Source of the DNA: a virus
Virus record (IMG/VR): IMGVR_UViG_3300022745_000020
Coordinates: 1-64,000 of that record
Length of the DNA: 64,000 nucleotides
Reading direction: 5' to 3' (one strand)
Each line of letters begins with the position of its first letter. Within the stretch, counting starts at the first letter, position 1. The position numbers were made by a program, and so were the translations under genes. This document shows, one piece after another, positions 1,379-12,322 of this stretch. A model generated the notes under the pieces. That model did no database searches. It was not told the DNA's origin and was given only the letters and a program-made list of their open reading frames with translations.

Positions 1379-3397
1379 ATGCATCCTACTGAGAAGATCC
1401 TCAAGGAGCTCACAGCCGAGCTCAAGCGACTGTGTCACATGTATCACATCCTCGGAGTATCGCTCGTGCCCGATGATGTCTACGATGCTAAATACCTCAA
1501 GCTCCAGGAGCTCGAAGAGCGCTACCCCCAGTGGGCTCAGACAGACTCCCCCACTAAGAAAGTAGGCTCCTCGATGCAGGAGGGATCCAAGAGCATCCAG
1601 ATGTCCACACCGATGCTCAGCATCAAGACTCACACCGACTGTGAGAGCTCCAGCGCTGCGGCATTCGACGCCTACATCAAAGATCTGCTGCAAGTGACTG
1701 AGCCTGTAGAGTACTGCTGTGAGCTCAAGTACGATGGCATGAGTGTAAACTTACGCTATCGTCATGGACACTTCACCTCAGCTAACCTACGAGGTGATGG
1801 CTACATCGGGGAAGATGTCACAGCCAACATCGCCTCACTGACGAGTTTCCCAAAGACTCTGCTGTGGGAGAGTCCTGCTGAGCTCGTAGAGATCCGTGCA
1901 GAGTGTATCTTCCTCAAGCAAGATTTCGATGCACTCAACGAGCGTCAGCAGCAGCGCATCGACAAAGGTGTCAAAGGCATCAAACTCTATGCCAATGCCC
2001 GCAACGCAGTAGCTGGACTCATCCGTCGTAGTGACGATGCACTGCTGAGCTCAGCCAATCTACAGATCTTTGCTTACGCGCTAGGTGAGTGTGTGGGCTA
2101 CATACCACCTGCTAAGCAGTCTGAGTTACTCGACACGCTCGTTGCTTGGGGCTTTCGCCCCACCAATCGTCAAGTCGTCAGTGACCCCCTCATGCTCTGT
2201 AAGTGGCATGAGTTGGTCAACCAAAAACGAGACGATTTGGATTTCGAAATCGATGGCGTAGTATACAAGGTCAACGACCGATCACTGCAAGACACACTCG
2301 GCTACAACTCACGAGAGCCCAAGTGGGCGATCGCTCACAAGTTCGCTCCCGCTGAGAAGCTCACGCGTCTCAAAGAGATCGATCTGCAAGTGGGCCGCAC
2401 CGGGCGTATCACCCCAGTAGGTAAGATCGAACCCGTGGCTGTGGGTGGGGTCATCGTCTCCAGTGTGAATCTACACAACGAAGATGAGATCAGACGCACC
2501 AACCTAGCCATAGGTGACACAGTGGTGGTCAGACGAGCAGGTGACGTCATCCCCGAGATCATCGCCAGTGTCAAAGAAGATGAATCGCAGCCCAGTCAAT
2601 ACTCCATCTACGACAAGCTCAACGGAGTATGCCCCTCCTGCCAATCCCCTATCGTCAAAGTAGGGGCCGATTGGAGATGCACTGCGGGCATGGCCTGTCG
2701 GGCTCAACGTGTGGAGTCACTCATTCATTTTTGCTCCAGACGCATGATGGATATCCAAGGTATCGGCGATAAGATCGCAGAACTCCTAGTGAGTAAAGAT
2801 CTGGTTAAACGATCCAGCGATGTATTCTACCTCACTCAAGAATCCCTCATGAGTGCGGGTATCTCCCCTCTGGTGGCCTCTACCATCCTAGCATCTATCG
2901 ACAAAGCCAAGTCCACCACGTATGAGAACTTTTTGTACGCTCTAGGCATCCCCTCAGTAGGTGAGGAGACCGCTCAAGTCCTGGCTAATGCCTATCCTCA
3001 GCTCGATGCACTGATCTCCTGTAAGGAGAGTGACTTGTTGAATATCCCCGGTATAGGCCCTATCACCGCTAAGCTGGTGTGCGACTACTTCACTCAGGAT
3101 GAACACATCAAAAATATCATTCGGTGTCTAGATGCAGGAGTATCTTGGCTCAATACTTCCTTAACCGAAGGTGCACTCACCGGTAAGACATTCGTCACCA
3201 CAGGCACATTACCTACGATGACCAGAGACGTCTTCATCAAGACCGTCAAGCTCCATGGTGGTAAGGTCAGTGGTACAGTATCTAATAAGGTTGATTATCT
3301 CGTAGCAGGAGAGCATGCTGGGGATAAGCTCAATAAAGCCACAGCTCTAGGGATACCTGTACTGAGTGAAGATGAGTTTTTATCACTTTTTCACTAA
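1379..3397 (+). CDS. ligA: NAD+-dependent DNA ligase
   Basis: ELKYDG adenylation motif, RGDG..GEDVT, DGVVYKVN, QVGRTGRITP, RRAGDVIP, C4 Zn finger (CPSC..C..C), HhH repeats and a C-terminal BRCT domain. The upstream ATG at 1334 lies inside a hairpin, so 1379 is the preferred start. Confidence 0.97.
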   Translation: MHPTEKILKELTAELKRLCHMYHILGVSLVPDDVYDAKYLKLQELEERYPQWAQTDSPTKKVGSSMQEGSKSIQMSTPMLSIKTHTDCESSSAAAFDAYIKDLLQVTEPVEYCCELKYDGMSVNLRYRHGHFTSANLRGDGYIGEDVTANIASLTSFPKTLLWESPAELVEIRAECIFLKQDFDALNERQQQRIDKGVKGIKLYANARNAVAGLIRRSDDALLSSANLQIFAYALGECVGYIPPAKQSELLDTLVAWGFRPTNRQVVSDPLMLCKWHELVNQKRDDLDFEIDGVVYKVNDRSLQDTLGYNSREPKWAIAHKFAPAEKLTRLKEIDLQVGRTGRITPVGKIEPVAVGGVIVSSVNLHNEDEIRRTNLAIGDTVVVRRAGDVIPEIIASVKEDESQPSQYSIYDKLNGVCPSCQSPIVKVGADWRCTAGMACRAQRVESLIHFCSRRMMDIQGIGDKIAELLVSKDLVKRSSDVFYLTQESLMSAGISPLVASTILASIDKAKSTTYENFLYALGIPSVGEETAQVLANAYPQLDALISCKESDLLNIPGIGPITAKLVCDYFTQDEHIKNIIRCLDAGVSWLNTSLTEGALTGKTFVTTGTLPTMTRDVFIKTVKLHGGKVSGTVSNKVDYLVAGEHAGDKLNKATALGIPVLSEDEFLSLFH

Positions 3398-3403
3398 TAG
3401 TAT

Positions 3404-3697
3404 GCGAGAGTGTAAGTGGTGTGAGCGTCGAGTCGTTATTTGACTCTGACTCACGAGGTCCAGACCCGCACACCCCATCTCGTGTCGTGCATTCCCGCTC
3501 AAGGATAGGGAACTCCTAGGCGACAGACGTCCCTCGTGACGCGCTCGCCCCCATACCCTTACCCTTCTTCACTTGAGCTGTGAGTGATACACGACTTCCC
3601 ATGCACTTAGCACCTATTTTGCTGATACATGGGTATAAGCCAAAGAAGTACCTGACGCACCGAGGGTTGATCCCTTTGGTGCGTCAGGTGGCTTATG
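3404..3697 (+). ncRNA. Candidate structured non-coding RNA
   Basis: About 350-nt ORF-free gap containing four consecutive base-paired domains read by eye (see findings). Strand is inferred from context. Confidence 0.45.
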
Positions 3698-3754
3698 CTG
3701 CCTCAAGATGAAAAGTTACCGAAATCTCCACTCTTATAGAAGAGGAACTCAGTC

Positions 3755-4087
3755 ATGTCAAACGAACAAAACCAGGTGATTCAGCTCGATGGCTATCTCG
3801 TCGATCGCATCATCGAGATGTATGACCATCCCAAATTTCACACTCAAGGAGTGTGTAATCACATCGACGAGTTACTCGATGCGGATATGTACACCGATCG
3901 AGAGAGTCATCAGCTCAAAGAAGTACTCGCTCAGATCAAAGAAAAGCAGCGCAGTGAATTTCAAGACTTGACTGCCGATGAGCTGCTGCTGCGATTACTG
4001 TCGCGTCAAGACAACATCGGCTGTTACTACAGCATCCGTCTGAATGTCCTGAAAGCCATCTACCCACGTGGTAAAGGAGTCTGGTGA
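3755..4087 (+). CDS. Hypothetical protein
   Basis: GAGGA SD, phage-typical codon usage. Confidence 0.7.
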   Translation: MSNEQNQVIQLDGYLVDRIIEMYDHPKFHTQGVCNHIDELLDADMYTDRESHQLKEVLAQIKEKQRSEFQDLTADELLLRLLSRQDNIGCYYSIRLNVLKAIYPRGKGVW

Positions 4088-4088
4088 A

Positions 4089-4490
4089 ATGAATTTCTCA
4101 AACATCTTGACGTATTTCAAAGGCGCGACTTGCGCTCACATCACCAATGCTCTCGGATACGATCGAGTAGCAGTGTGCAAGGTCGAAAACAGTATTTTGG
4201 ATATTGACCTTTGCGTGTTGTCGGATCTGGCTCACGATATCGGGCTGCGTGTGGTCGTCGATACGAACGATCGCAATTCGATCATCTGTTTATGTGGGAG
4301 CCGAGAGCAGTTTCAAGCTCGACATGATTTCATGGAGCTCAGCCATGCCCTGAGGCTGCGTTATACGGACACGCAAGAGGAATTGCCATTATTCGACACC
4401 ACCGCCGAGAGTAATGAAGCGGTCCGGAAGATGAAGTTGGAATACATCAACCGCATCCAAAACTACATCCGAGAAAAGCATGTTCACTGA
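4089..4490 (+). CDS. Hypothetical protein
   Basis: AAGGAG SD, ATG directly after the upstream stop. Confidence 0.65.
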   Translation: MNFSNILTYFKGATCAHITNALGYDRVAVCKVENSILDIDLCVLSDLAHDIGLRVVVDTNDRNSIICLCGSREQFQARHDFMELSHALRLRYTDTQEELPLFDTTAESNEAVRKMKLEYINRIQNYIREKHVH

Positions 4491-4851
4491 CCGAATCCGC
4501 CGTGATATCCTCACTTTTGCTGAGACCTACATCCCTCAGTCCAGTCAAAAGACCAATGAAATTGGATACCGTAATCTCTTGCGACGCATCTTGAGCGAAG
4601 GTGTGAATAAGGATGATCGCACAGGAACAGGTACTCGCTCCTTGCATGGTCAATCCATCACGTATGATTTGCGTGACTCCATCCCCTTGTTCACCAGCAA
4701 GAAAGTCCATGCCAAGACAGCCATCAATGAGATGCTGTGTTTCTTGAATGCGCAGACTCATCTGTCGGACTACCATGCCCGTAATGTCCATGTCTGGGAT
4801 AAGTTTGCAGACGAGACGGGTTCGAGTACTGAGATTTTGATGGTTCATTAA
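4480..4851 (+). pseudogene. thyA: N-terminal fragment of thymidylate synthase
   Basis: Y..LL..IL.EG..K.DRTGTGT, PLFTSKKV, EMLCFL and VWDKFAD are present. The frame ends before the catalytic PCH/RSND motifs. Confidence 0.85.
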
Positions 4852-4865
4852 TAAGGGGATAAATA

Positions 4866-5819
4866 ATGACCACCGTTTTTCTACAAAATCAAGCGGATTC
4901 TGCATATGCCGGTCTGATAAACGAGGTTCTCTCAGAAGGGAGAATAAAAGCAGATCGTACAGGTACTGGGACAATATCCTATCACGGTTATACGGTTAGG
5001 TATAGTTGTAAGGAGGGGTTCCCGATCCTTACAACAAAGCAGGTTCTCTACAGATCGGCTATCGCTGAAATGATTTGTTTTATGCGGGGGTACACCAACG
5101 TAAAACAATTTAACCTTATGGGAACCAAAGTTTGGGATAAATTTGCTGATCCGGACACTGGGTCAATTGGGGATCTATATGGTCGTCAGTGGGTCAATTG
5201 GATCTGTAGTGGGGGGGAAGGTGGATCAATAAATCAGCTCAATGACCGATTAACAGAACTGAGAAACAACCCCTTCTCCAGGAGGTTGCTCATCAGCGCA
5301 TGGAATCCTCAATTCCTCCCTCCGGAAGACACCGATCCAACAGATAATCCAAAAAATGGATTATTCTCTTTGGCGCCCTGTCATCATGCTTTTCAGCTGA
5401 TCGCAAAGCCCGGTCAGAAAAATGACATAGGAAAGAATAATAGCCCTTATTTGAAAAGAGCCACTGATGAACATGGTCATTTCAAAGTACTGGACTTACA
5501 CCTCTCCATTAGAAGTAATGACCTATTCCTTGGGCACCCCTTCAATTGCGTAGGGTATTCCTTTTTACTGATGTGGATATCTGCGTGTTATGGATTCGTT
5601 CCCGGTGAATTGATTATTTCCATAGCGGATGCACACATCTACAAAGATCATCTTCCACAGATAGCTGAGCAGATGACAAAGTCATCTTTCACTGCACCGT
5701 TATCTCAGTTTAAAAATATCGACCCAACCCCTGAGAATTTTTTCTTGGTTGAACCAGATAACTTCGAGCTTTCGGATTATCAACATAATGCTTTTATCAA
5801 AGGTAACGTATCAAAGTAA
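4866..5819 (+). CDS. thyA: Thymidylate synthase
   Basis: DRTGTGT, FPILTTK, YGRQW, SRRLLISAWN, LAPCH (catalytic Cys), RSND, PFN, DAHIY. Confidence 0.97.
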   Translation: MTTVFLQNQADSAYAGLINEVLSEGRIKADRTGTGTISYHGYTVRYSCKEGFPILTTKQVLYRSAIAEMICFMRGYTNVKQFNLMGTKVWDKFADPDTGSIGDLYGRQWVNWICSGGEGGSINQLNDRLTELRNNPFSRRLLISAWNPQFLPPEDTDPTDNPKNGLFSLAPCHHAFQLIAKPGQKNDIGKNNSPYLKRATDEHGHFKVLDLHLSIRSNDLFLGHPFNCVGYSFLLMWISACYGFVPGELIISIADAHIYKDHLPQIAEQMTKSSFTAPLSQFKNIDPTPENFFLVEPDNFELSDYQHNAFIKGNVSK

Positions 5820-5838
5820 TGAACTTTGATCAACAGCC

Positions 5839-6933
5839 ATGAAGAAAGTCGACTTCTTAAAGAATTTATTTGATAAATTTCCTCAAAGGGAAACCCAGTA
5901 CGATTACAGTTTGATTCCAGAAGAGTTTTCTTCCTGGAAGTATAAGGTCCCTATTGTCTGTAAAGAACATGGGGTGTTTTATCAGAGGGCGGATGCTCAC
6001 CTAAAAGGGCAGATTTGTAAAGAGTGCCATTTAAAACGAACGAGGCTTACTACCGAAATGTTTGTTAACAATGCTAAAAAATGCCATGGTGAAAATAAGT
6101 ACAACTATGATAAAACTGTGTATTACGGAGACAATAAACTGGTTACAGTAACTTGCCCCGAACATGGGGATTTTACTCAATATGCAACTAACCATGTACG
6201 TGGCCATGGGTGTCCGGCCTGTGTTGGTCTGAAGCGCCATACTTTCCATGACTTTGAGAAAAGGGCCATGGAGCTGCATAAGGGAAAATATAAATATATC
6301 GATGAATTTACAGTTAGGCGACATAATAAGGTAGCGATAATCTGCCCGGATCATGGAACTTTCACTCAGGAGGTAGGTAAACACCTAACCGGGCAGGGTT
6401 GTCCGAAATGCTCTGCTTCTAAAATAGAGCGGAAAATCTATAGCCTATTGGATAGTTTTGAGGTAAGTTATGAGCCAGAGTTTGAAATCCCTTTGCACCC
6501 ATACAGGTATGATATTTTAATATCTGGATGCAATATACTTATTGAACTACATGGCCCTCAACATTACAGACCGGTCAGTTTGTTTAACGGGGAAGAGGGG
6601 TTTAGAAAAAGAATTCGCCTAGATTCAGAGAAGAGAAAATTGGCGACCGAGTCCGATTTTCACTTGATAGAGATTGATCTTCGCCCCTTTGAAAAAGGTA
6701 GGTATGAGGATGAGGATCTATATTCCTATTTTATAGCTGAAATCAAAAAGCACTTCCCTTACTGGTACAAAATAAACGGTAAAGTGAGGGCATATAGAAA
6801 TCTGCAAGAGACATATGATAATCTCAGAATTTTCAAGTGTAACATCCTAAAGTGTCGTGACGAAAAAGACATTCAAAAGGTTTTGGATGATGAGATTGCA
6901 TATATGTTTCCTGAGTCTAGTCGTGTGTTCTAA
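5839..6933 (+). CDS. Free-standing putative homing endonuclease (Zn-ribbon repeats plus Vsr/DUF559-like PD-(D/E)xK domain)
   Basis: Three CxxHG.F.Q....H..G..CxxC repeats, C-terminal YDILI...IELHGPQHY...D..KR. AT-richer than the backbone. Confidence 0.8.
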   Translation: MKKVDFLKNLFDKFPQRETQYDYSLIPEEFSSWKYKVPIVCKEHGVFYQRADAHLKGQICKECHLKRTRLTTEMFVNNAKKCHGENKYNYDKTVYYGDNKLVTVTCPEHGDFTQYATNHVRGHGCPACVGLKRHTFHDFEKRAMELHKGKYKYIDEFTVRRHNKVAIICPDHGTFTQEVGKHLTGQGCPKCSASKIERKIYSLLDSFEVSYEPEFEIPLHPYRYDILISGCNILIELHGPQHYRPVSLFNGEEGFRKRIRLDSEKRKLATESDFHLIEIDLRPFEKGRYEDEDLYSYFIAEIKKHFPYWYKINGKVRAYRNLQETYDNLRIFKCNILKCRDEKDIQKVLDDEIAYMFPESSRVF

Positions 6934-7203
6934 TCGCCTATTAGTGGCTCTATGACCTCAGAAATTCAAATTCTACCAGTAGGTTAATCGTGTGCACCAA
7001 GCTCGACTCTAAGTCAGGTGTAGTCCTAGTCATGCTCATCAGTGCAGCGTGTTTTATAGGACTGATCTACCTACACACATAGGTCCATACAGCCCTCTAT
7101 AGGCCCTCTAAGCGCTCTAGACGCCATAGGGGCCTATAGGGGTATTATGCCCTATCTTCACGAACCCTCATTCAACAGACACACTCAACCAACATGGAAC
7201 ATT

Positions 7204-7545
7204 ATGTCTAACGAAATCTTCGTCTTTGGCTCCAATCTCGCAGGTCGACATGGGGCAGGTGCTGCTCTATACGCCAAAGAGCACTACAAGGCCAAGACAG
7301 GCGTGGGAGTAGGGCGCACTGGTAATGCCTACGCCATCCCCACCAAAGACGAGAAACTCCAAACGCTCACTCTGGAGCGCATCAACGAGTACGTCCAGGC
7401 TTTCCTGAAGTACGCTCGAGAAAACCCCCACCTGACGTTCAACGTCACTGCAGTGGGATGCGGTCGCGCCGGCTATGGCGACTCCCATATCTCACCGATG
7501 TTCAAGGGCGCCCCCAGTAACTGTAAACTGCCAGCAAACTGGTAA
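7204..7545 (+). CDS. Macrodomain-like phage protein (IFVFGSN...HGAGAA family)
   Basis: IFVFGSNLAGRHGAGAA, YAIPTK, F.VT.VGCG.AGY motifs. Confidence 0.75.
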   Translation: MSNEIFVFGSNLAGRHGAGAALYAKEHYKAKTGVGVGRTGNAYAIPTKDEKLQTLTLERINEYVQAFLKYARENPHLTFNVTAVGCGRAGYGDSHISPMFKGAPSNCKLPANW

Positions 7546-7633
7546 ATAGAGATAAAGCTATCACACGTGGCAATCCCAATCGTCAGTAAGTGAAGTCGTC
7601 ACATAGTCACCAACAAACGCAGGAAACATTACA

Positions 7634-10600
7634 ATGAGTACCGAACAAACCATCACACTGCAACAACTGCTCGATCAAACCGCACAGATCTCTCAAGATG
7701 TCCTCATCGAGAAGTACTGCAAGGATGGTGAGACCACTGCCGATGAAGTCTATGCTCGAGTCGCCAAAGGACTGGCTCAAGCTGAGAAGCCGCAAGATCG
7801 CGACAAGTGGGAGAAAATCTTCTACCATCACTTGCAGAACTACGGAGTCGGTGCTGGTCGGATCATGTCCGCATGCGGCACTGACGTACAGGCTGCCCTA
7901 CTGAACTGTTTTTGTCAGGGTGTGGGTGATACGTTTGACCCCGTCGATGAAGATGGTCACCCCGGTATAATTCAAGCAGTCGCTCAAGCAGTCAAGACTA
8001 TGTCCAAGGGTGGTGGGGTCGGATATAACTTCACTAACATTCGCCCACGCAAATCGTTGGTCAAGGGAACCCTTTCCACCACATCCGGCGTTTGTAGCTT
8101 TATCGATATCTTCGATATCGCTGGAAAGACAGTAGAAAGTGCCGGAAACCGTCGGGGTGCGCAATTAGGTGCTCTGGATATTGACCACCCTGACATCTAT
8201 GAGTTTGTCCAAGCCAAGCGCGAGCCGGGTCGTTGGTCTGGGTTCAATGTGTCGGTGGCTTGTTCCGATGCCTTCATGCAAGCTGTGCAAGACGATGGTA
8301 TTTGGGAGCTTAAGCATAAGGCTCAACCTCACCCGAAATATCAAAAAGAATGCTATCAACGCGAAGATGGGCTATGGGTCTATCAGGTCGTAAAAGCAAG
8401 GGATCTGTTTGATACTATCACCAAATCCACATATGACTATGCCGAACCCGGCATTCTTTTCTTGGATAAAATCAATCGAGAAAATACAGTCTACTACTGT
8501 GAAGAAATCAAGACCACCAATCCATGCGTGACGGGAGATACTCGCCTACACACGCAATACGGGATGGTGCAGATCAAGAATCTTTACGATATTAAATGTG
8601 ATCTGATAGTCACTGTAGATAACCGCACTCTGGACTCTGAGGAGTTTGGGGTGACTACTCGTCCCGCCGTTCCAGCGTTCATGACGTCATCGAGAGCCGC
8701 AGTCTATAAAGTCACTTCCAAAGACGGGTACTTCGTGAAGGGTACCAATTGGCATGACTTCTATACTCAGCGCGGTAAGATTAAGCTCAAAGACCTGACC
8801 ATCTCCGATAGCTTCCTGGTCCAATCTGAGATGGGTCAATTTAATTCATTGCAAAATGAATCCCTGGTAACCGAGCTGATGAATCAGTACGGTGATCTGT
8901 CAGCCGGCGTGCCCGACGAAGCATTCTCCCTGTGCCAGGAAGATACCAAGACGTACATTCAGCACGTTTTTTCCATTAATGGGGACTTCAGATTTGATTT
9001 CCTGAATACGGGAGTTGTTCTGGTTTTCAAATGCACTGAAAAAGAGCATCTGCAATCCATTCAAATGCTGCTGGCAAACTTTGGAATCTTCAGCAGCATT
9101 GAGAAAACAAGTAGTGGGTATGAGCTTGAAATGCGGGGTTCTCAAGTAGGGCTCTACCTGGATCGAGTCGGGATGAATAATCCGGAAAATGAGGCGTATG
9201 CTCGTCGACGCTACGAAGAGGTAAACGATCCTCAGAAGTTCGACTACACGACTGAGATTGAATCTATTGAATTTATTGGGTATGAGGCCGTTTATGACAC
9301 CACCCAAGCTGATCACAATAGCGTGATCTTTAACGGAGTGGTTACGGGTCAATGCGGCGAGTTGCCCCTCCCCCCATACGGCTGTTGCGACCTCGGTCCA
9401 CTGATTCTCCCCCGTTTCGTGAAAGATCCTTTCACTGAAAACGCTACTTTCGATATGGATCGGTTTGTGCAGGCTGTCAAGACACAGGTTCGCATTCTGG
9501 ACAATGTACTTGATATCACGCTGTGGGCTTTGGATGAACAGCGTATCGAAGCTGCAAATAAGCGTCGCATCGGTGTAGGCTATACTGGCATTGGCGATGC
9601 AATGATTATGCTAGGTATCCGATATGACTCTGCCGGAGCTGTTTTGTTGGCTGGGAGTATTGCTAAACAGATGAATGAAGCCGCATTTGAAGCTTCGATT
9701 GATTTGGCTGTCGAGCGGGGGTCTTTCCCTCTGTTCGACGTAGATAAGTTTATGGCGGGGCCGTTCATTCAGCGTCTTCCTAAACATCTCCAAGACGCAA
9801 TTCGCGAGAAAGGCATTCGCCATTCGCATTTATTGTCAATTGCACCTACTGGAACAGTGTCTCTGGCATTCGCTGATAACGCCAGTAACGGAATCGAGCC
9901 TGCATTTAGCTGGGTGTATTCTCGTCGCAAGATAGGTCCCGATGGACAATTCCAGACCTATCAGGTCATGGACTATGCTTTCAAGACTTACATCAAGGAA
10001 GTATTATCCAAGCAAGAATCTGAAGAGTATTGCATTGGCTTTATTCAAGCCGTTTCTGAAGGTAAGAGTGAATATCTTGGTAAGAAGATCAAAGAGATTC
10101 TCCCAGATGCATTTGTAACAGCCTTAGAGATTGATGTAGATGCTCACCTGGCTATCTTGTTTGCCACTCAGCCGCATGTGTCCTCGGCCTTGAGCAAGTG
10201 TGTGGCCGAAGGTACTCGCATCATGACTAATCAAGGTCTTCTGAAAGTAGAAGAGCTTGGGGAGGCTGAAGATCCCGATACATTTGCAGAACCCATCGCT
10301 GATCTGAAGGTCATCTGTCCCGATGGTCAGTGGCGAAAGGTCACTAAGCACTATTACGGTGGAGTGCGACCCACCATTAAAATCCGCTTGGATAATGGGC
10401 AGGAAATTGAAGGTAGTGAAGTTCATAAACTCATGACCCCATATGGGTGGACTCCGATGAGTGAGCTCAATTACCATGACTATGTTTGCATTCGTCGCGA
10501 TGTGAGTATGGACTATCCAGGTGGAAAAGAGCTACCTGGTATCGACTTTGCAAGTCATGCAAAGGACTTCACCATCCCGGAGAAGATGTCTGCGGAACTA

Positions 10601-12322
10601 GCGATGTTTCTCGGTATGATCTGTGCAGATGGGCATCTGCAAGAGAAGGCAGGTCTAGTGTCCTTAACGAAGAATGACCAATCAGTAGGAGCTCTCTTTG
10701 CAGACCTTTGCAAGACGCTGTTTAATGCCGAAATTAAGCACCGTATAGATCCCAGGAACGGTGTGCATTATTGGCAATTTACATCCAGGGCAGTGGTTCG
10801 TTGGATCAAAAATCTGATCGGATACCGCTCTGCTGACAAGCATGCCCCTGAGGCGGTGATGTCGGGATCTCCAGACGAAATGCGCGCTTTCTTGGCAGGT
10901 GTTAGCTTGGATGGATACCGGGCAAACTTCCTGTCCGGTGGTAGTTCAGCCACTGTAATTTACATGGGGCGGTCCAAAGAGCTTGCCGGCAATTGCTTCT
11001 CGTTGCTCAACGCTTTGGGGTATGCCCCACGAGGGATGACCAAGCGTGTAAATGGTTATGACTACCTCGTATATGGGGTCATGTGCTATGGGTTTGAGGG
11101 TTGTTTGCAAGACCACAAGAATACCCAGCACGTGCAGCCGAATGAGTTAATTAAACTACCCTTCGGTGTTAACCGGGGTATGTTCTCTGCATATAGTCAG
11201 GGTTATAAATATATGTGCAATATTGAAGTTCGCAATCAACCTGTGAGCAGAGAGCAATCCGTGAGAAAGTATCTCACGGGAGAAGACTCCCCTCAAGAGC
11301 CGTTTATTTACCGCAAGATTACCTCAATTGAGCGTTGTCAAGCTCACGTGTACGACATTGAGGTGGAGGAAAGTCACGACTATCTTATCGATGGCGTGGT
11401 CTCCCATAACACCGTCAATTGCCCTGAGGATTATCCTTTCGAAGACTTTCAGGATATTTACATGAAGGCCTGGAAGGGTGGTCTCAAAGGTGTCTCCACT
11501 TATCGCCCCAACCCAGTGCGACCCGGTATCCTCACTGCCCCAGTGGAGAAGAAAGAAGAAGTAACTCCTCCAAAGCAGGATGTGGTGGTTGAGATTCTAT
11601 CTTCGCTTGATGATGTCGACCCACGCACTCTAGAGCTCAATAAGCTCCCTTACCAGGATCTCCCAGCCATCAAGATCAAGACAGAGATGCTGGTGAACTA
11701 TGTTTCCCACAATCTGCACCTGATCGTATCCTTTGCACGCGTATCGGGTATCCATCGAGGGCAGCCTGTGAGCATCTATCGACCTGTGGAGTTCTTCATT
11801 CCTCAGTCTCAGCTCGATGGTGCTCCTCAGTGGGTGACTGCTTCCATGCGCATGTTATCTTTGATGGCCCGTGGTGGTGCTCAATTTGCCAAAGCGCTCA
11901 GTGATATGCGCAACATCACCTGGGCTGGAGGTCAAGTCCAGTGTGGTAAGACCATCACTGCAGATGGTAAATCTAAGCCCATCTTCCACAGCAGTGACAC
12001 TGCAGCCATCGCCTGGATCATCCAAGATCTGCTGATTCGCAATGGTTATCTGGGCGAGGATGGCGCTATGCTCAGCGTGGATGAGCTGATGGTCAATCAG
12101 GCCAGTCGTCGCCCCTATGAGCCTCTACAGTACGCCGATATCCCTGCAGTGCGTGTGCCTCAAACAGTCCAAAAGGTGACTGAGTCCGTCACTGAAAAGA
12201 AAGATGTACCGAAGGCTTTGGTCAATGGCAAAAAGTGCCCTGAATGCCACAGCATGACTCTGGTCAAGCGAGATGGCTGTGAGAAGTGTGATACCTGCGG
12301 CTACACGGGTAGCTGCGGCTAA
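7634..12322 (+). CDS. nrdJ: Class II (adenosylcobalamin-dependent) ribonucleotide reductase with two inteins and fused C-terminal TSCPD/Zn-ribbon region
   Basis: GRI, NCF, GGGVG, RRGAQ, EPGILFLD, TNPC/GE split by intein, RRIGVG, IAPTGT, GIEP, SK/TVN split by intein, GLKG.STYR, C-terminal CPEC..C..CGY..C. Confidence 0.95.
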   Translation: MSTEQTITLQQLLDQTAQISQDVLIEKYCKDGETTADEVYARVAKGLAQAEKPQDRDKWEKIFYHHLQNYGVGAGRIMSACGTDVQAALLNCFCQGVGDTFDPVDEDGHPGIIQAVAQAVKTMSKGGGVGYNFTNIRPRKSLVKGTLSTTSGVCSFIDIFDIAGKTVESAGNRRGAQLGALDIDHPDIYEFVQAKREPGRWSGFNVSVACSDAFMQAVQDDGIWELKHKAQPHPKYQKECYQREDGLWVYQVVKARDLFDTITKSTYDYAEPGILFLDKINRENTVYYCEEIKTTNPCVTGDTRLHTQYGMVQIKNLYDIKCDLIVTVDNRTLDSEEFGVTTRPAVPAFMTSSRAAVYKVTSKDGYFVKGTNWHDFYTQRGKIKLKDLTISDSFLVQSEMGQFNSLQNESLVTELMNQYGDLSAGVPDEAFSLCQEDTKTYIQHVFSINGDFRFDFLNTGVVLVFKCTEKEHLQSIQMLLANFGIFSSIEKTSSGYELEMRGSQVGLYLDRVGMNNPENEAYARRRYEEVNDPQKFDYTTEIESIEFIGYEAVYDTTQADHNSVIFNGVVTGQCGELPLPPYGCCDLGPLILPRFVKDPFTENATFDMDRFVQAVKTQVRILDNVLDITLWALDEQRIEAANKRRIGVGYTGIGDAMIMLGIRYDSAGAVLLAGSIAKQMNEAAFEASIDLAVERGSFPLFDVDKFMAGPFIQRLPKHLQDAIREKGIRHSHLLSIAPTGTVSLAFADNASNGIEPAFSWVYSRRKIGPDGQFQTYQVMDYAFKTYIKEVLSKQESEEYCIGFIQAVSEGKSEYLGKKIKEILPDAFVTALEIDVDAHLAILFATQPHVSSALSKCVAEGTRIMTNQGLLKVEELGEAEDPDTFAEPIADLKVICPDGQWRKVTKHYYGGVRPTIKIRLDNGQEIEGSEVHKLMTPYGWTPMSELNYHDYVCIRRDVSMDYPGGKELPGIDFASHAKDFTIPEKMSAELAMFLGMICADGHLQEKAGLVSLTKNDQSVGALFADLCKTLFNAEIKHRIDPRNGVHYWQFTSRAVVRWIKNLIGYRSADKHAPEAVMSGSPDEMRAFLAGVSLDGYRANFLSGGSSATVIYMGRSKELAGNCFSLLNALGYAPRGMTKRVNGYDYLVYGVMCYGFEGCLQDHKNTQHVQPNELIKLPFGVNRGMFSAYSQGYKYMCNIEVRNQPVSREQSVRKYLTGEDSPQEPFIYRKITSIERCQAHVYDIEVEESHDYLIDGVVSHNTVNCPEDYPFEDFQDIYMKAWKGGLKGVSTYRPNPVRPGILTAPVEKKEEVTPPKQDVVVEILSSLDDVDPRTLELNKLPYQDLPAIKIKTEMLVNYVSHNLHLIVSFARVSGIHRGQPVSIYRPVEFFIPQSQLDGAPQWVTASMRMLSLMARGGAQFAKALSDMRNITWAGGQVQCGKTITADGKSKPIFHSSDTAAIAWIIQDLLIRNGYLGEDGAMLSVDELMVNQASRRPYEPLQYADIPAVRVPQTVQKVTESVTEKKDVPKALVNGKKCPECHSMTLVKRDGCEKCDTCGYTGSCG
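8525..9352 (+). mobile_element. Intein 1 in NrdJ (276 aa, ends Gly-Gln, degenerate endonuclease)
   Basis: NP|CVTGDT...T.WHDF...VYD.T....NGVVTGQ|CGE. Removing it restores the NPCGE active-site motif. Confidence 0.9.
10199..11410 (+). mobile_element. Intein 2 in NrdJ (404 aa, LAGLIDADG endonuclease)
   Basis: SK|CVAEGT...S.VHKL...FLGMICADG...FLAGVSLDG...VYDIEV...VSHN|TVN. Removing it restores SKTVN. Confidence 0.93.

Follow-up and report, generated by a model that had tools for sequence, protein, structure and literature searches.

Free-standing homing endonucleases of T-even phages act through co-conversion and marker exclusion, in which the donor allele of a neighbouring essential gene replaces that of the recipient (PMC2988022, PMC2790892). 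In the homing endonuclease gene (HEG)-islands described by Barth, Dunham and Seed, essential cargo is >90% identical at the DNA level between otherwise different phages, with fragments of essential genes beside it (PMC10055350). Endonuclease insertions can also split phage genes, as with mobE in nrdA of Aeh1 and mobA in gene 39/60 of T4 (PMC2988022), and I-Bth0305I is an EDxHD homing endonuclease encoded in a group I intron of recA (PMC3239194; PDB 3r3p). Here we describe a thymidylate synthase (thyA) locus that shares features with each of these systems. It lies in IMG/VR record IMGVR_UViG_3300022745_000020, a 147.9-kb record of an uncultured virus, a large phage, from a freshwater metagenome with a CheckV completeness of about half; the window, that is, the whole stretch of DNA analysed, comprises its first 64 kb. 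We consider it probable that positions 4819 to ~6903–6933 form a mobile cassette, in which a free-standing homing endonuclease gene is accompanied by a complete, presumably cleavage-resistant thyA that has replaced the resident one. The locus is laid out as follows.

4068–4490, plus strand: backbone gene of 140 amino acids without a family match; its TGA is overlapped by the ATG of the stub, and the homologous stretch in contig X8 (see below) is ~81% identical.
4480–4851, plus strand: thyA 5′ stub open reading frame (ORF) of 123 amino acids, the ATG of which overlaps the TGA of the ORF at 4068–4490.
4480–4818, plus strand: 5′ remnant of the resident thyA within the stub, codons 1–113, up to ..VWDKFADET; codon usage and divergence between lineages are both backbone-like.
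4792–4811, plus strand: 20-nt block coding for VWDKFAD, immediately left of the junction; nowhere else does the stub resemble the new thyA in DNA, and the block may belong to the target of the endonuclease.
4819–4865, plus strand: left arm of the cassette, which provides the last ten codons of the stub (GSSTEILMVH), a TAATAA double stop and the Shine–Dalgarno sequence of the new thyA.
4866–5819, plus strand: complete thymidylate synthase gene of 317 amino acids, from the long-insert ThyA subfamily and in the lowest-GC class of the genome.
5159–5279, plus strand: polymorphic patch inside the new thyA, with 13 of the 15 differences to X8.
5839–6933, plus strand: free-standing homing-type endonuclease gene of 364 amino acids, with Zn-finger repeats and a Vsr/I-Bth0305I-like domain.
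6904–7146, plus strand: right border and intergenic region; 6904–7025 is 94% identical in X4 and X8, and an inverted repeat lies at 7094–7106/7130–7142.
7147–7545, plus strand: downstream backbone gene of 132 amino acids, phrog_2072, 84–87% identical in X4 and X8.

The likeness to the described systems is substantial. As in the intronless homing of T-even phages, a free-standing endonuclease gene stands beside an essential gene of nucleotide metabolism, an endonuclease-less genome would be cut and flanking DNA would be co-converted. Near-identical essential cargo, a gene fragment and Zn-finger repeats of the same type recall HEG-islands, while I-Bth0305I has the same Vsr-like catalytic fold and is likewise a multidomain phage enzyme targeting DNA-metabolism genes. 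As with mobE and mobA, a conserved site within an essential gene has taken up a free-standing endonuclease gene, with no intron.

The two thyA reading frames differ in completeness. The stub matches positions 3–89 of the 266 positions of PF00303 (E = 4.7e-25), ends before the catalytic Cys and lacks most of the ThyA fold; its homology to ThyA stops at ..FADETGS (codons to 4824). The new ThyA matches positions 2–265 of the same family (E = 3.3e-72, 243 bits) and scores 189 bits on TIGR03284, for which the cut-off is 108. Aligned with bacterial ThyA, it keeps the DRTGTGT Arg, the SRR pair, the PCH Cys nucleophile, RSxD, the PFN Asn and DAHIY; judged from this alignment, the PFN Asn is the residue that goes with deoxyuridine monophosphate (dUMP) rather than deoxycytidine monophosphate (dCMP) as substrate. 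The new gene starts 14 nt after the stop of the stub, with a GGGGA Shine–Dalgarno sequence 6 nt upstream of its start and behind the TAATAA. The endonuclease ORF follows after 19 nt and is separated from the backbone ORF at 7147–7545 by a 213-nt spacer.

Across 94 amino acids, the stub and the new ThyA share 43% protein identity, and their DNA similarity is limited to 20 nt (4792–4811 versus 5130–5149, 85%). Searching the whole 148-kb record with PF00303 (E ≤ 10) for a second C-terminal thyA half returned the stub and the new thyA only. Likewise, tblastn against the record with the C-terminal half of P0006, a full-length relative of the stub, matched the new thyA alone and revealed no resident remnant.

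The composition of the locus separates the stub from what follows it. Taking the 123 other long ORFs of the record as backbone, we found that the stub up to 4818 has a GC content at third codon positions of 0.575 (genome mean 0.584) and a codon score at the 75th percentile. The new thyA (GC 0.426) and the endonuclease gene (GC 0.392) are the lowest in the genome; both have codon scores within the 0–1st percentile, with the new thyA at percentile 0. In 800-nt windows, 4700–7400 is the strongest low-GC island of the 147.9-kb record, with a minimum of 0.386 against a mean of 0.513 (standard deviation 0.033). Thus, the stub looks backbone-like and the two-gene block looks imported, and from this contrast in GC and codon usage we take the former to be native and the latter to be foreign. 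A first-pass annotation of the DNA had described a 123-amino-acid ThyA stub that overlaps the upstream stop and has backbone-like codon usage, a loss of homology right after VWDKFADETGS at ~4824, a complete and diverged ThyA 14 nt further on with its own Shine–Dalgarno sequence, an endonuclease gene behind it, an AT-richer block at ~4830–6980 and the absence of a C-terminal remnant downstream; our searches and composition analyses bear out each of these observations.

We compared the locus with relatives in public metagenomes by aligning Logan contigs of four public runs on window positions 2500–9000. X8 and X4 are wastewater samples from separate studies and X3 is a further freshwater sample; the runs X4–X7 carry a cDNA label but are probably DNA, and no inference on expression was drawn from them. 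Throughout 2500–9000, the window and the X8 contig (24.3 kb) are collinear, with the following identities.

2500–2982: 77% identical.
3363–3836: 85% identical.
4089–4181: 81% identical.
4819–5999: 15 differences in 1,181 nt (98.7% identical).
7234–7503: 84% identical.
7665–7887: 81% identical.

In the stub region of X8, just short patches pass the 85% threshold. The points matching 4181 and 4819 are 692 nt apart in X8, compared with 638 nt in the window; as 692 nt is too short for an intact thyA, X8 also has a stub. The X4 contig (2,130 nt) spans 4819–6902 with 23 differences in 2,084 nt (98.9% identical). Its 46 letters left of 4819 are in register with the end of the stub, where 22 of the 30 shown match (73%) and the peptide reads HVWDEFADPS instead of the HVWDKFADET of the window. 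When the X4 differences are applied to the window sequence, they regenerate P0005, a protein that a protein search had independently found to be 99% identical to the new ThyA, which cross-checks the difference table. The contig depths of X4 (26.4 on the stub side, 35.8 in the cassette and 56.9 in the right flank) are unreliable and were not used, although they hint at a mixed population.

In both X4 and X8, identity jumps at 4819, which is where the ThyA homology of the stub ends. The flanks, including the stub and the conserved ribonucleotide reductase gene, are 13–27% diverged, whereas the block from 4819 is ~99% identical, its synonymous sites being near-identical between the lineages as well. 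This is a signature of the co-conversion type (~99% over 4819–5999/6902 versus 73–87% in the flanks). Because identity jumps at 4819 and synonymous sites are conserved too, the alignment points to recent lateral transfer of the block between phages, as opposed to common descent or conservation of the enzyme.

The window comes from a metagenome assembly, and the stub/cassette junction might have been produced by chimaeric assembly. We give this explanation next to no credence, since the same junction occurs in three other samples or studies: a contig from X3 bridges it (4651–4881), the loose end of X4 is in register with it and X8 is continuous over 24 kb. An assembly chimaera is thus refuted by the contigs of X3, X4 and X8.

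A second alternative is an old tandem duplication of thyA in place, after which the first copy diverged and was truncated and the endonuclease gene was inserted later. In an exhaustive representative search, the closest full-length relative of the stub was P0006 (353 amino acids), at 60% identity, and all others were ≤49% identical. Phylogenetic analysis placed the stub and the new thyA in one small ThyA clade with P0006, P0007 and P0315 (support 100/99), and a long insert after the catalytic Cys is common to the full-length members compared (the new thyA, P0006 and P0007). Shared membership of this five-member clade is what a duplication would leave, and a sister relation is not rejected: on 89 alignment columns, the grouping of the stub with P0006 has support of 77/30, and the stub plus new-thyA clade has a P value of 0.45 in the approximately unbiased test (p-AU). 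Nevertheless, composition and the cross-lineage comparison make the case against duplication in place. Within one genome, the copies are opposite in GC and codon usage, and between lineages the stub has drifted apart to the degree seen in the backbone, against ~99% identity for the new copy. Their 42–43% protein identity, the DNA similarity of just 20 nt and the greater closeness of the stub to P0006 (60%) than to the copy beside it also speak against this origin, which we judge highly improbable. Since the stub and the new thyA share one small clade, the cassette probably came from a phage that is distantly related but has a thyA of this kind.

The near-identical block extends into the endonuclease gene, which differs in state between the relatives: it is intact in X4 and the window, and X8 carries an internal deletion. 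X8 lacks 6000–6907, a stretch of 908 nt that is not a multiple of 3 and is therefore frameshifting, but keeps thyA and both ends of the endonuclease gene. As both ends remain, the nuclease-less state of X8 appears to be derived and the gene to have decayed in place. No convincing microhomology was seen at the end-points of the deletion. Comparing the window with X4, we counted 11 synonymous and 4 non-synonymous differences in thyA, and 2 synonymous and 5 non-synonymous differences in the endonuclease gene. Elements of this type are known to invade and then lose their endonuclease by decay (PMC2988022), so that decay of the endonuclease after invasion, with purifying selection maintaining the useful cargo, is the course to be expected.

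The 364-amino-acid protein contains Pfam DUF4379/DUF723 zinc fingers, and the phage families that it matches bear the annotation endonuclease or homing endonuclease. With 30 homologues as input, an AlphaFold model (mean pLDDT 82.6) divides it into three DUF723/DUF4379 (CapR-like) Zn-finger repeats (residues 1–192), a nuclease domain (residues 193–318) and a C-terminal tail of low model confidence. Repeats of the DUF723/DUF4379/CapR type are the DNA-binding array of phage homing endonucleases (PMC10055350). The nuclease domain superimposes on Escherichia coli Vsr (Z 10.7, root mean square deviation (rmsd) 2.8 Å, 110 residues aligned) and on the I-Bth0305I catalytic domain (Z 10.6, rmsd 2.9 Å, 97 of 97 residues aligned), both with a Foldseek probability of 1.00, and the next unrelated folds score ~7–8. 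The model thus predicts the fold used by known homing endonucleases.

Sequence searches of the PDB with the endonuclease (phmmer and profile) gave no match to 3r3p; apart from chance hits, the profile search weakly matched the Vsr-like domain of AbaSI (E = 0.035). At least 90% of the 30 homologues share E197, D225, E236, H242, D262 and K265; from the fold match, E197, D225, H238/H242 and D262 are candidate equivalents of the EDxHD residues. The nuclease motif reads ELHGPQH, with His where most homologues have Asp (IE-x-D-G-x-Q-H), and resembles the THGCFWH of Vsr. The family is widespread, with 1,951 matching places in 857 cultured-phage records and often several copies per genome; the record of the window holds one copy. 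Taken with the composition and the comparison of relatives, the nuclease fold and the decayed copy in X8 support the proposal of the first-pass annotation that the resident thyA lost its remainder to an incoming cassette made up of thyA and endonuclease gene, and the contigs of X3, X4 and X8 exclude the assembly artefact that it named as a refutation.

The new thyA holds a further divergent stretch. Between the window and X4/X8, 13 substitutions (9 of them synonymous) fall within 5159–5279, with thyA otherwise almost identical, and they alter a loop from SGGEGGS to SGEQGRS. The start of the patch and the stub junction are homologous positions (T98|G99), a post hoc observation hinting that cleavage at this one point also gave rise to a short conversion tract here.

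These data are consistent with the following course of events. In a co-infected cell, a phage lacking the cassette would have its thyA, of the resident type, cut by the endonuclease; the break would fall at, or adjacent to, the conserved VWDKFAD block, on the codon boundary that corresponds to 4818/4819. The left end of the break would then prime repair synthesis on the donor stub and copy the whole cassette, while resection of the right end would proceed as far as the first DNA downstream of thyA that both genomes share, with loss of the resident 3′ two thirds. The product would be a 5′ stub followed by the new thyA and the endonuclease gene, with the stub recreated in each invaded genome. 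The new thyA would use the expression signals of the resident gene, probably through coupling to the stub ORF, and would supply the essential function. That the endonuclease is the breaker, the site of its cut, the immunity of the new thyA and the coupling of its translation to the stub are our inferences; immunity may perhaps stem from the extra codon of the new gene (FADPDTGS versus FADETGS). The left edge would be sharp because recipients had no prior cassette, which would have allowed crossovers inside it, and because the break falls at the 4818/4819 boundary. A stub without function would still be an intact ORF because it is only as young as the arrival of the cassette.

Retention of the stub for a function, either as a peptide that binds or inhibits host or phage ThyA or as an upstream ORF that delivers ribosomes, would be compatible with the cassette model. 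The ORF is intact, overlaps its upstream neighbour and stops beside the Shine–Dalgarno sequence, 14 nt ahead of the new ATG; moreover, X8 has a stub of similar length and in X4 the stub end is in frame. However, the ~1% divergence of the cassette indicates a recent arrival, so intactness needs no selection, and the divergence of the stub between lineages would date from the era of the whole gene. With the catalytic Cys and most of the fold missing, we hold a retained function to be quite unlikely; the ThyA-binding peptide offered as an option by the first-pass annotation is without support and is not needed to explain the locus.

Phage genomes are commonly mosaic, and the block may instead have been exchanged by general or illegitimate recombination, as in the shuffling of modules, with the endonuclease as a passenger or acting elsewhere. 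This would accommodate X8, which has the same near-identical thyA without a working endonuclease. Against it, flanks of 73–87% identity are a poor substrate for unassisted homologous exchange, and two contigs place the left edge at one and the same nucleotide, precisely where the thyA homology stops. The exchanged block also contains an endonuclease gene of a homing-type family, and because X8 keeps both ends of that gene, the endonuclease was present when the block arrived. On balance, we find exchange without the help of the endonuclease unlikely, although it is the strongest of the competing explanations.

Several points weigh against the homing cassette that we favour. Cleavage in the model, and its target site, are deduced from the junction. 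The tree leaves the stub and the new thyA as possible sisters within a five-member ThyA subfamily (p-AU 0.45). The right edge of the near-identical block lies at ~6903, where no more than 30 nt (ten codons) of the endonuclease ORF remain, and coincides with the end of the X8 deletion (6908) and with the break of the X4 contig, which the simple model does not predict. The next ~120 nt (6904–7025) are 94% identical in X4 and X8, an intermediate level, and backbone identity is reached beyond; repeated partial conversions, or a population mixed for deleted and intact forms, could possibly produce this pattern. All of the comparative evidence comes from one layout of Logan contigs. Finally, among cultured phages, IMG/VR and JGI metagenomes, our searches turned up no genome in which this synteny contains a resident-type thyA that is intact.

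In those searches, near and distant comparisons with cultured phages yielded no close DNA relatives, and the new thyA product was at most 37.5% identical to any cultured-phage protein. IMG/VR, queried with the stub, the upstream gene, the ligase, the new thyA, the ribonucleotide reductase N terminus and an alignment of the ThyA subfamily, gave distant matches only, none with the locus. Querying JGI metagenomes with the 132-amino-acid downstream protein retrieved 80 loci, ≤65% identical, none of which has thyA, the endonuclease or the upstream genes.

The surroundings of the cassette were also searched. For 3000–9000, a search for group I introns or other RNA families (E ≤ 1) gave nothing relevant. 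We rejected a group I intron or intein as the carrier of the endonuclease: there was no intron match in this interval, the new thyA is complete alone and the stub is without a downstream partner. No convincing direct or inverted repeats were found at the ends of the cassette, and a promoter and terminator scan returned no more sites than shuffled sequences. A 13-nt inverted repeat (7094–7106/7130–7142) lies just upstream of the start at 7147. The 132-amino-acid protein encoded there (7147–7545) belongs to phrog_2072, of unknown function, carries the motif FVFGSN..G.HG.GAA and has >560 relatives in metagenome contigs, none >65% identical. Further downstream, the ribonucleotide reductase gene (7634–12322) encodes an ORF of 1,562 amino acids in the window, with inserts of its own; in X4 and X8, window positions 8139–8519 (379 nt) are replaced by 1,576 letters, so that the N-terminal part holds an extra insert of ~1.2 kb, possibly another intein or endonuclease element.

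The cassette departs from each of the known systems. T-even alleles are close homologues that recombine on both sides and leave no remnant, whereas here the gene is 43% identical, a stub is kept and the 3′ part is lost; in T-even-type cases the nuclease is GIY-YIG or HNH, in contrast to the Vsr-like domain with Zn fingers of our locus. HEG-islands are bracketed by at least two endonuclease genes, whereas the single cargo gene of our locus has one, on its right alone; the upstream ORFs (3755–4087 and 4068–4490) have no nuclease match. Moreover, HEG-island fragments share DNA homology with full-length cargo, while the fragment here is the displaced resident allele, and HEG-island nuclease domains are mostly T5orf172 or HNH rather than Vsr-like. 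I-Bth0305I is intron-encoded, has no detectable sequence match to our protein and differs in its DNA-binding part, for which our protein has three N-terminal Zn-finger repeats. For mobE and mobA, both halves of the split gene are kept and reassemble to an enzyme that works; at our locus, no second half is left and the imported copy functions.

The closest analogy in logic is fungal. In atp6 of Allomyces macrogynus, a mobile mitochondrial endonuclease ORF reportedly brings a replacement gene end. In such ORFs, a coding piece substitutes for the displaced part, a remnant may stay and no intron is involved; however, the end of the gene is replaced to give a hybrid gene, in an organelle and by another nuclease family, while at our locus a whole gene is brought in and the remnant is unused. 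In sum, a complete cargo gene diverged beyond recombination with the resident one, a stub of the 5′ third, a single one-sided endonuclease gene and a Vsr-like nuclease set this locus apart.

We also entertain, tentatively and with more doubt than conviction, that the cassette is a ‘gene-replacement drive’, an endonuclease equipped with a complete, cleavage-immune xenologue of its own target and with the stub as a working part. If so, thyA alleles too diverged for two-sided homing would become invadable, since a single homology arm inside the target, namely the stub, would suffice. The stub would both serve as the left homology arm when the cassette next invades a genome and act as a leader ORF that ties the new gene to the resident promoter and ribosome flow, and the divergent patch beginning at 5159 would be a trace of cleavage at this same point among members of the cassette family.

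If the cassette moves as we propose, the locus would be a natural example of a homing endonuclease that invades an essential gene without an intron or intein, by bringing a spare whole gene. The sharp junction would predict a cleavage site for a widespread, uncharacterized family of Zn-finger and Vsr-like phage endonucleases, the modular architecture of which may be of practical interest for nuclease engineering. Such endonucleases could move complete metabolic genes between phages that are 15–25% diverged, leaving behind short stubs that would otherwise be annotated as duplications or pseudogenes.

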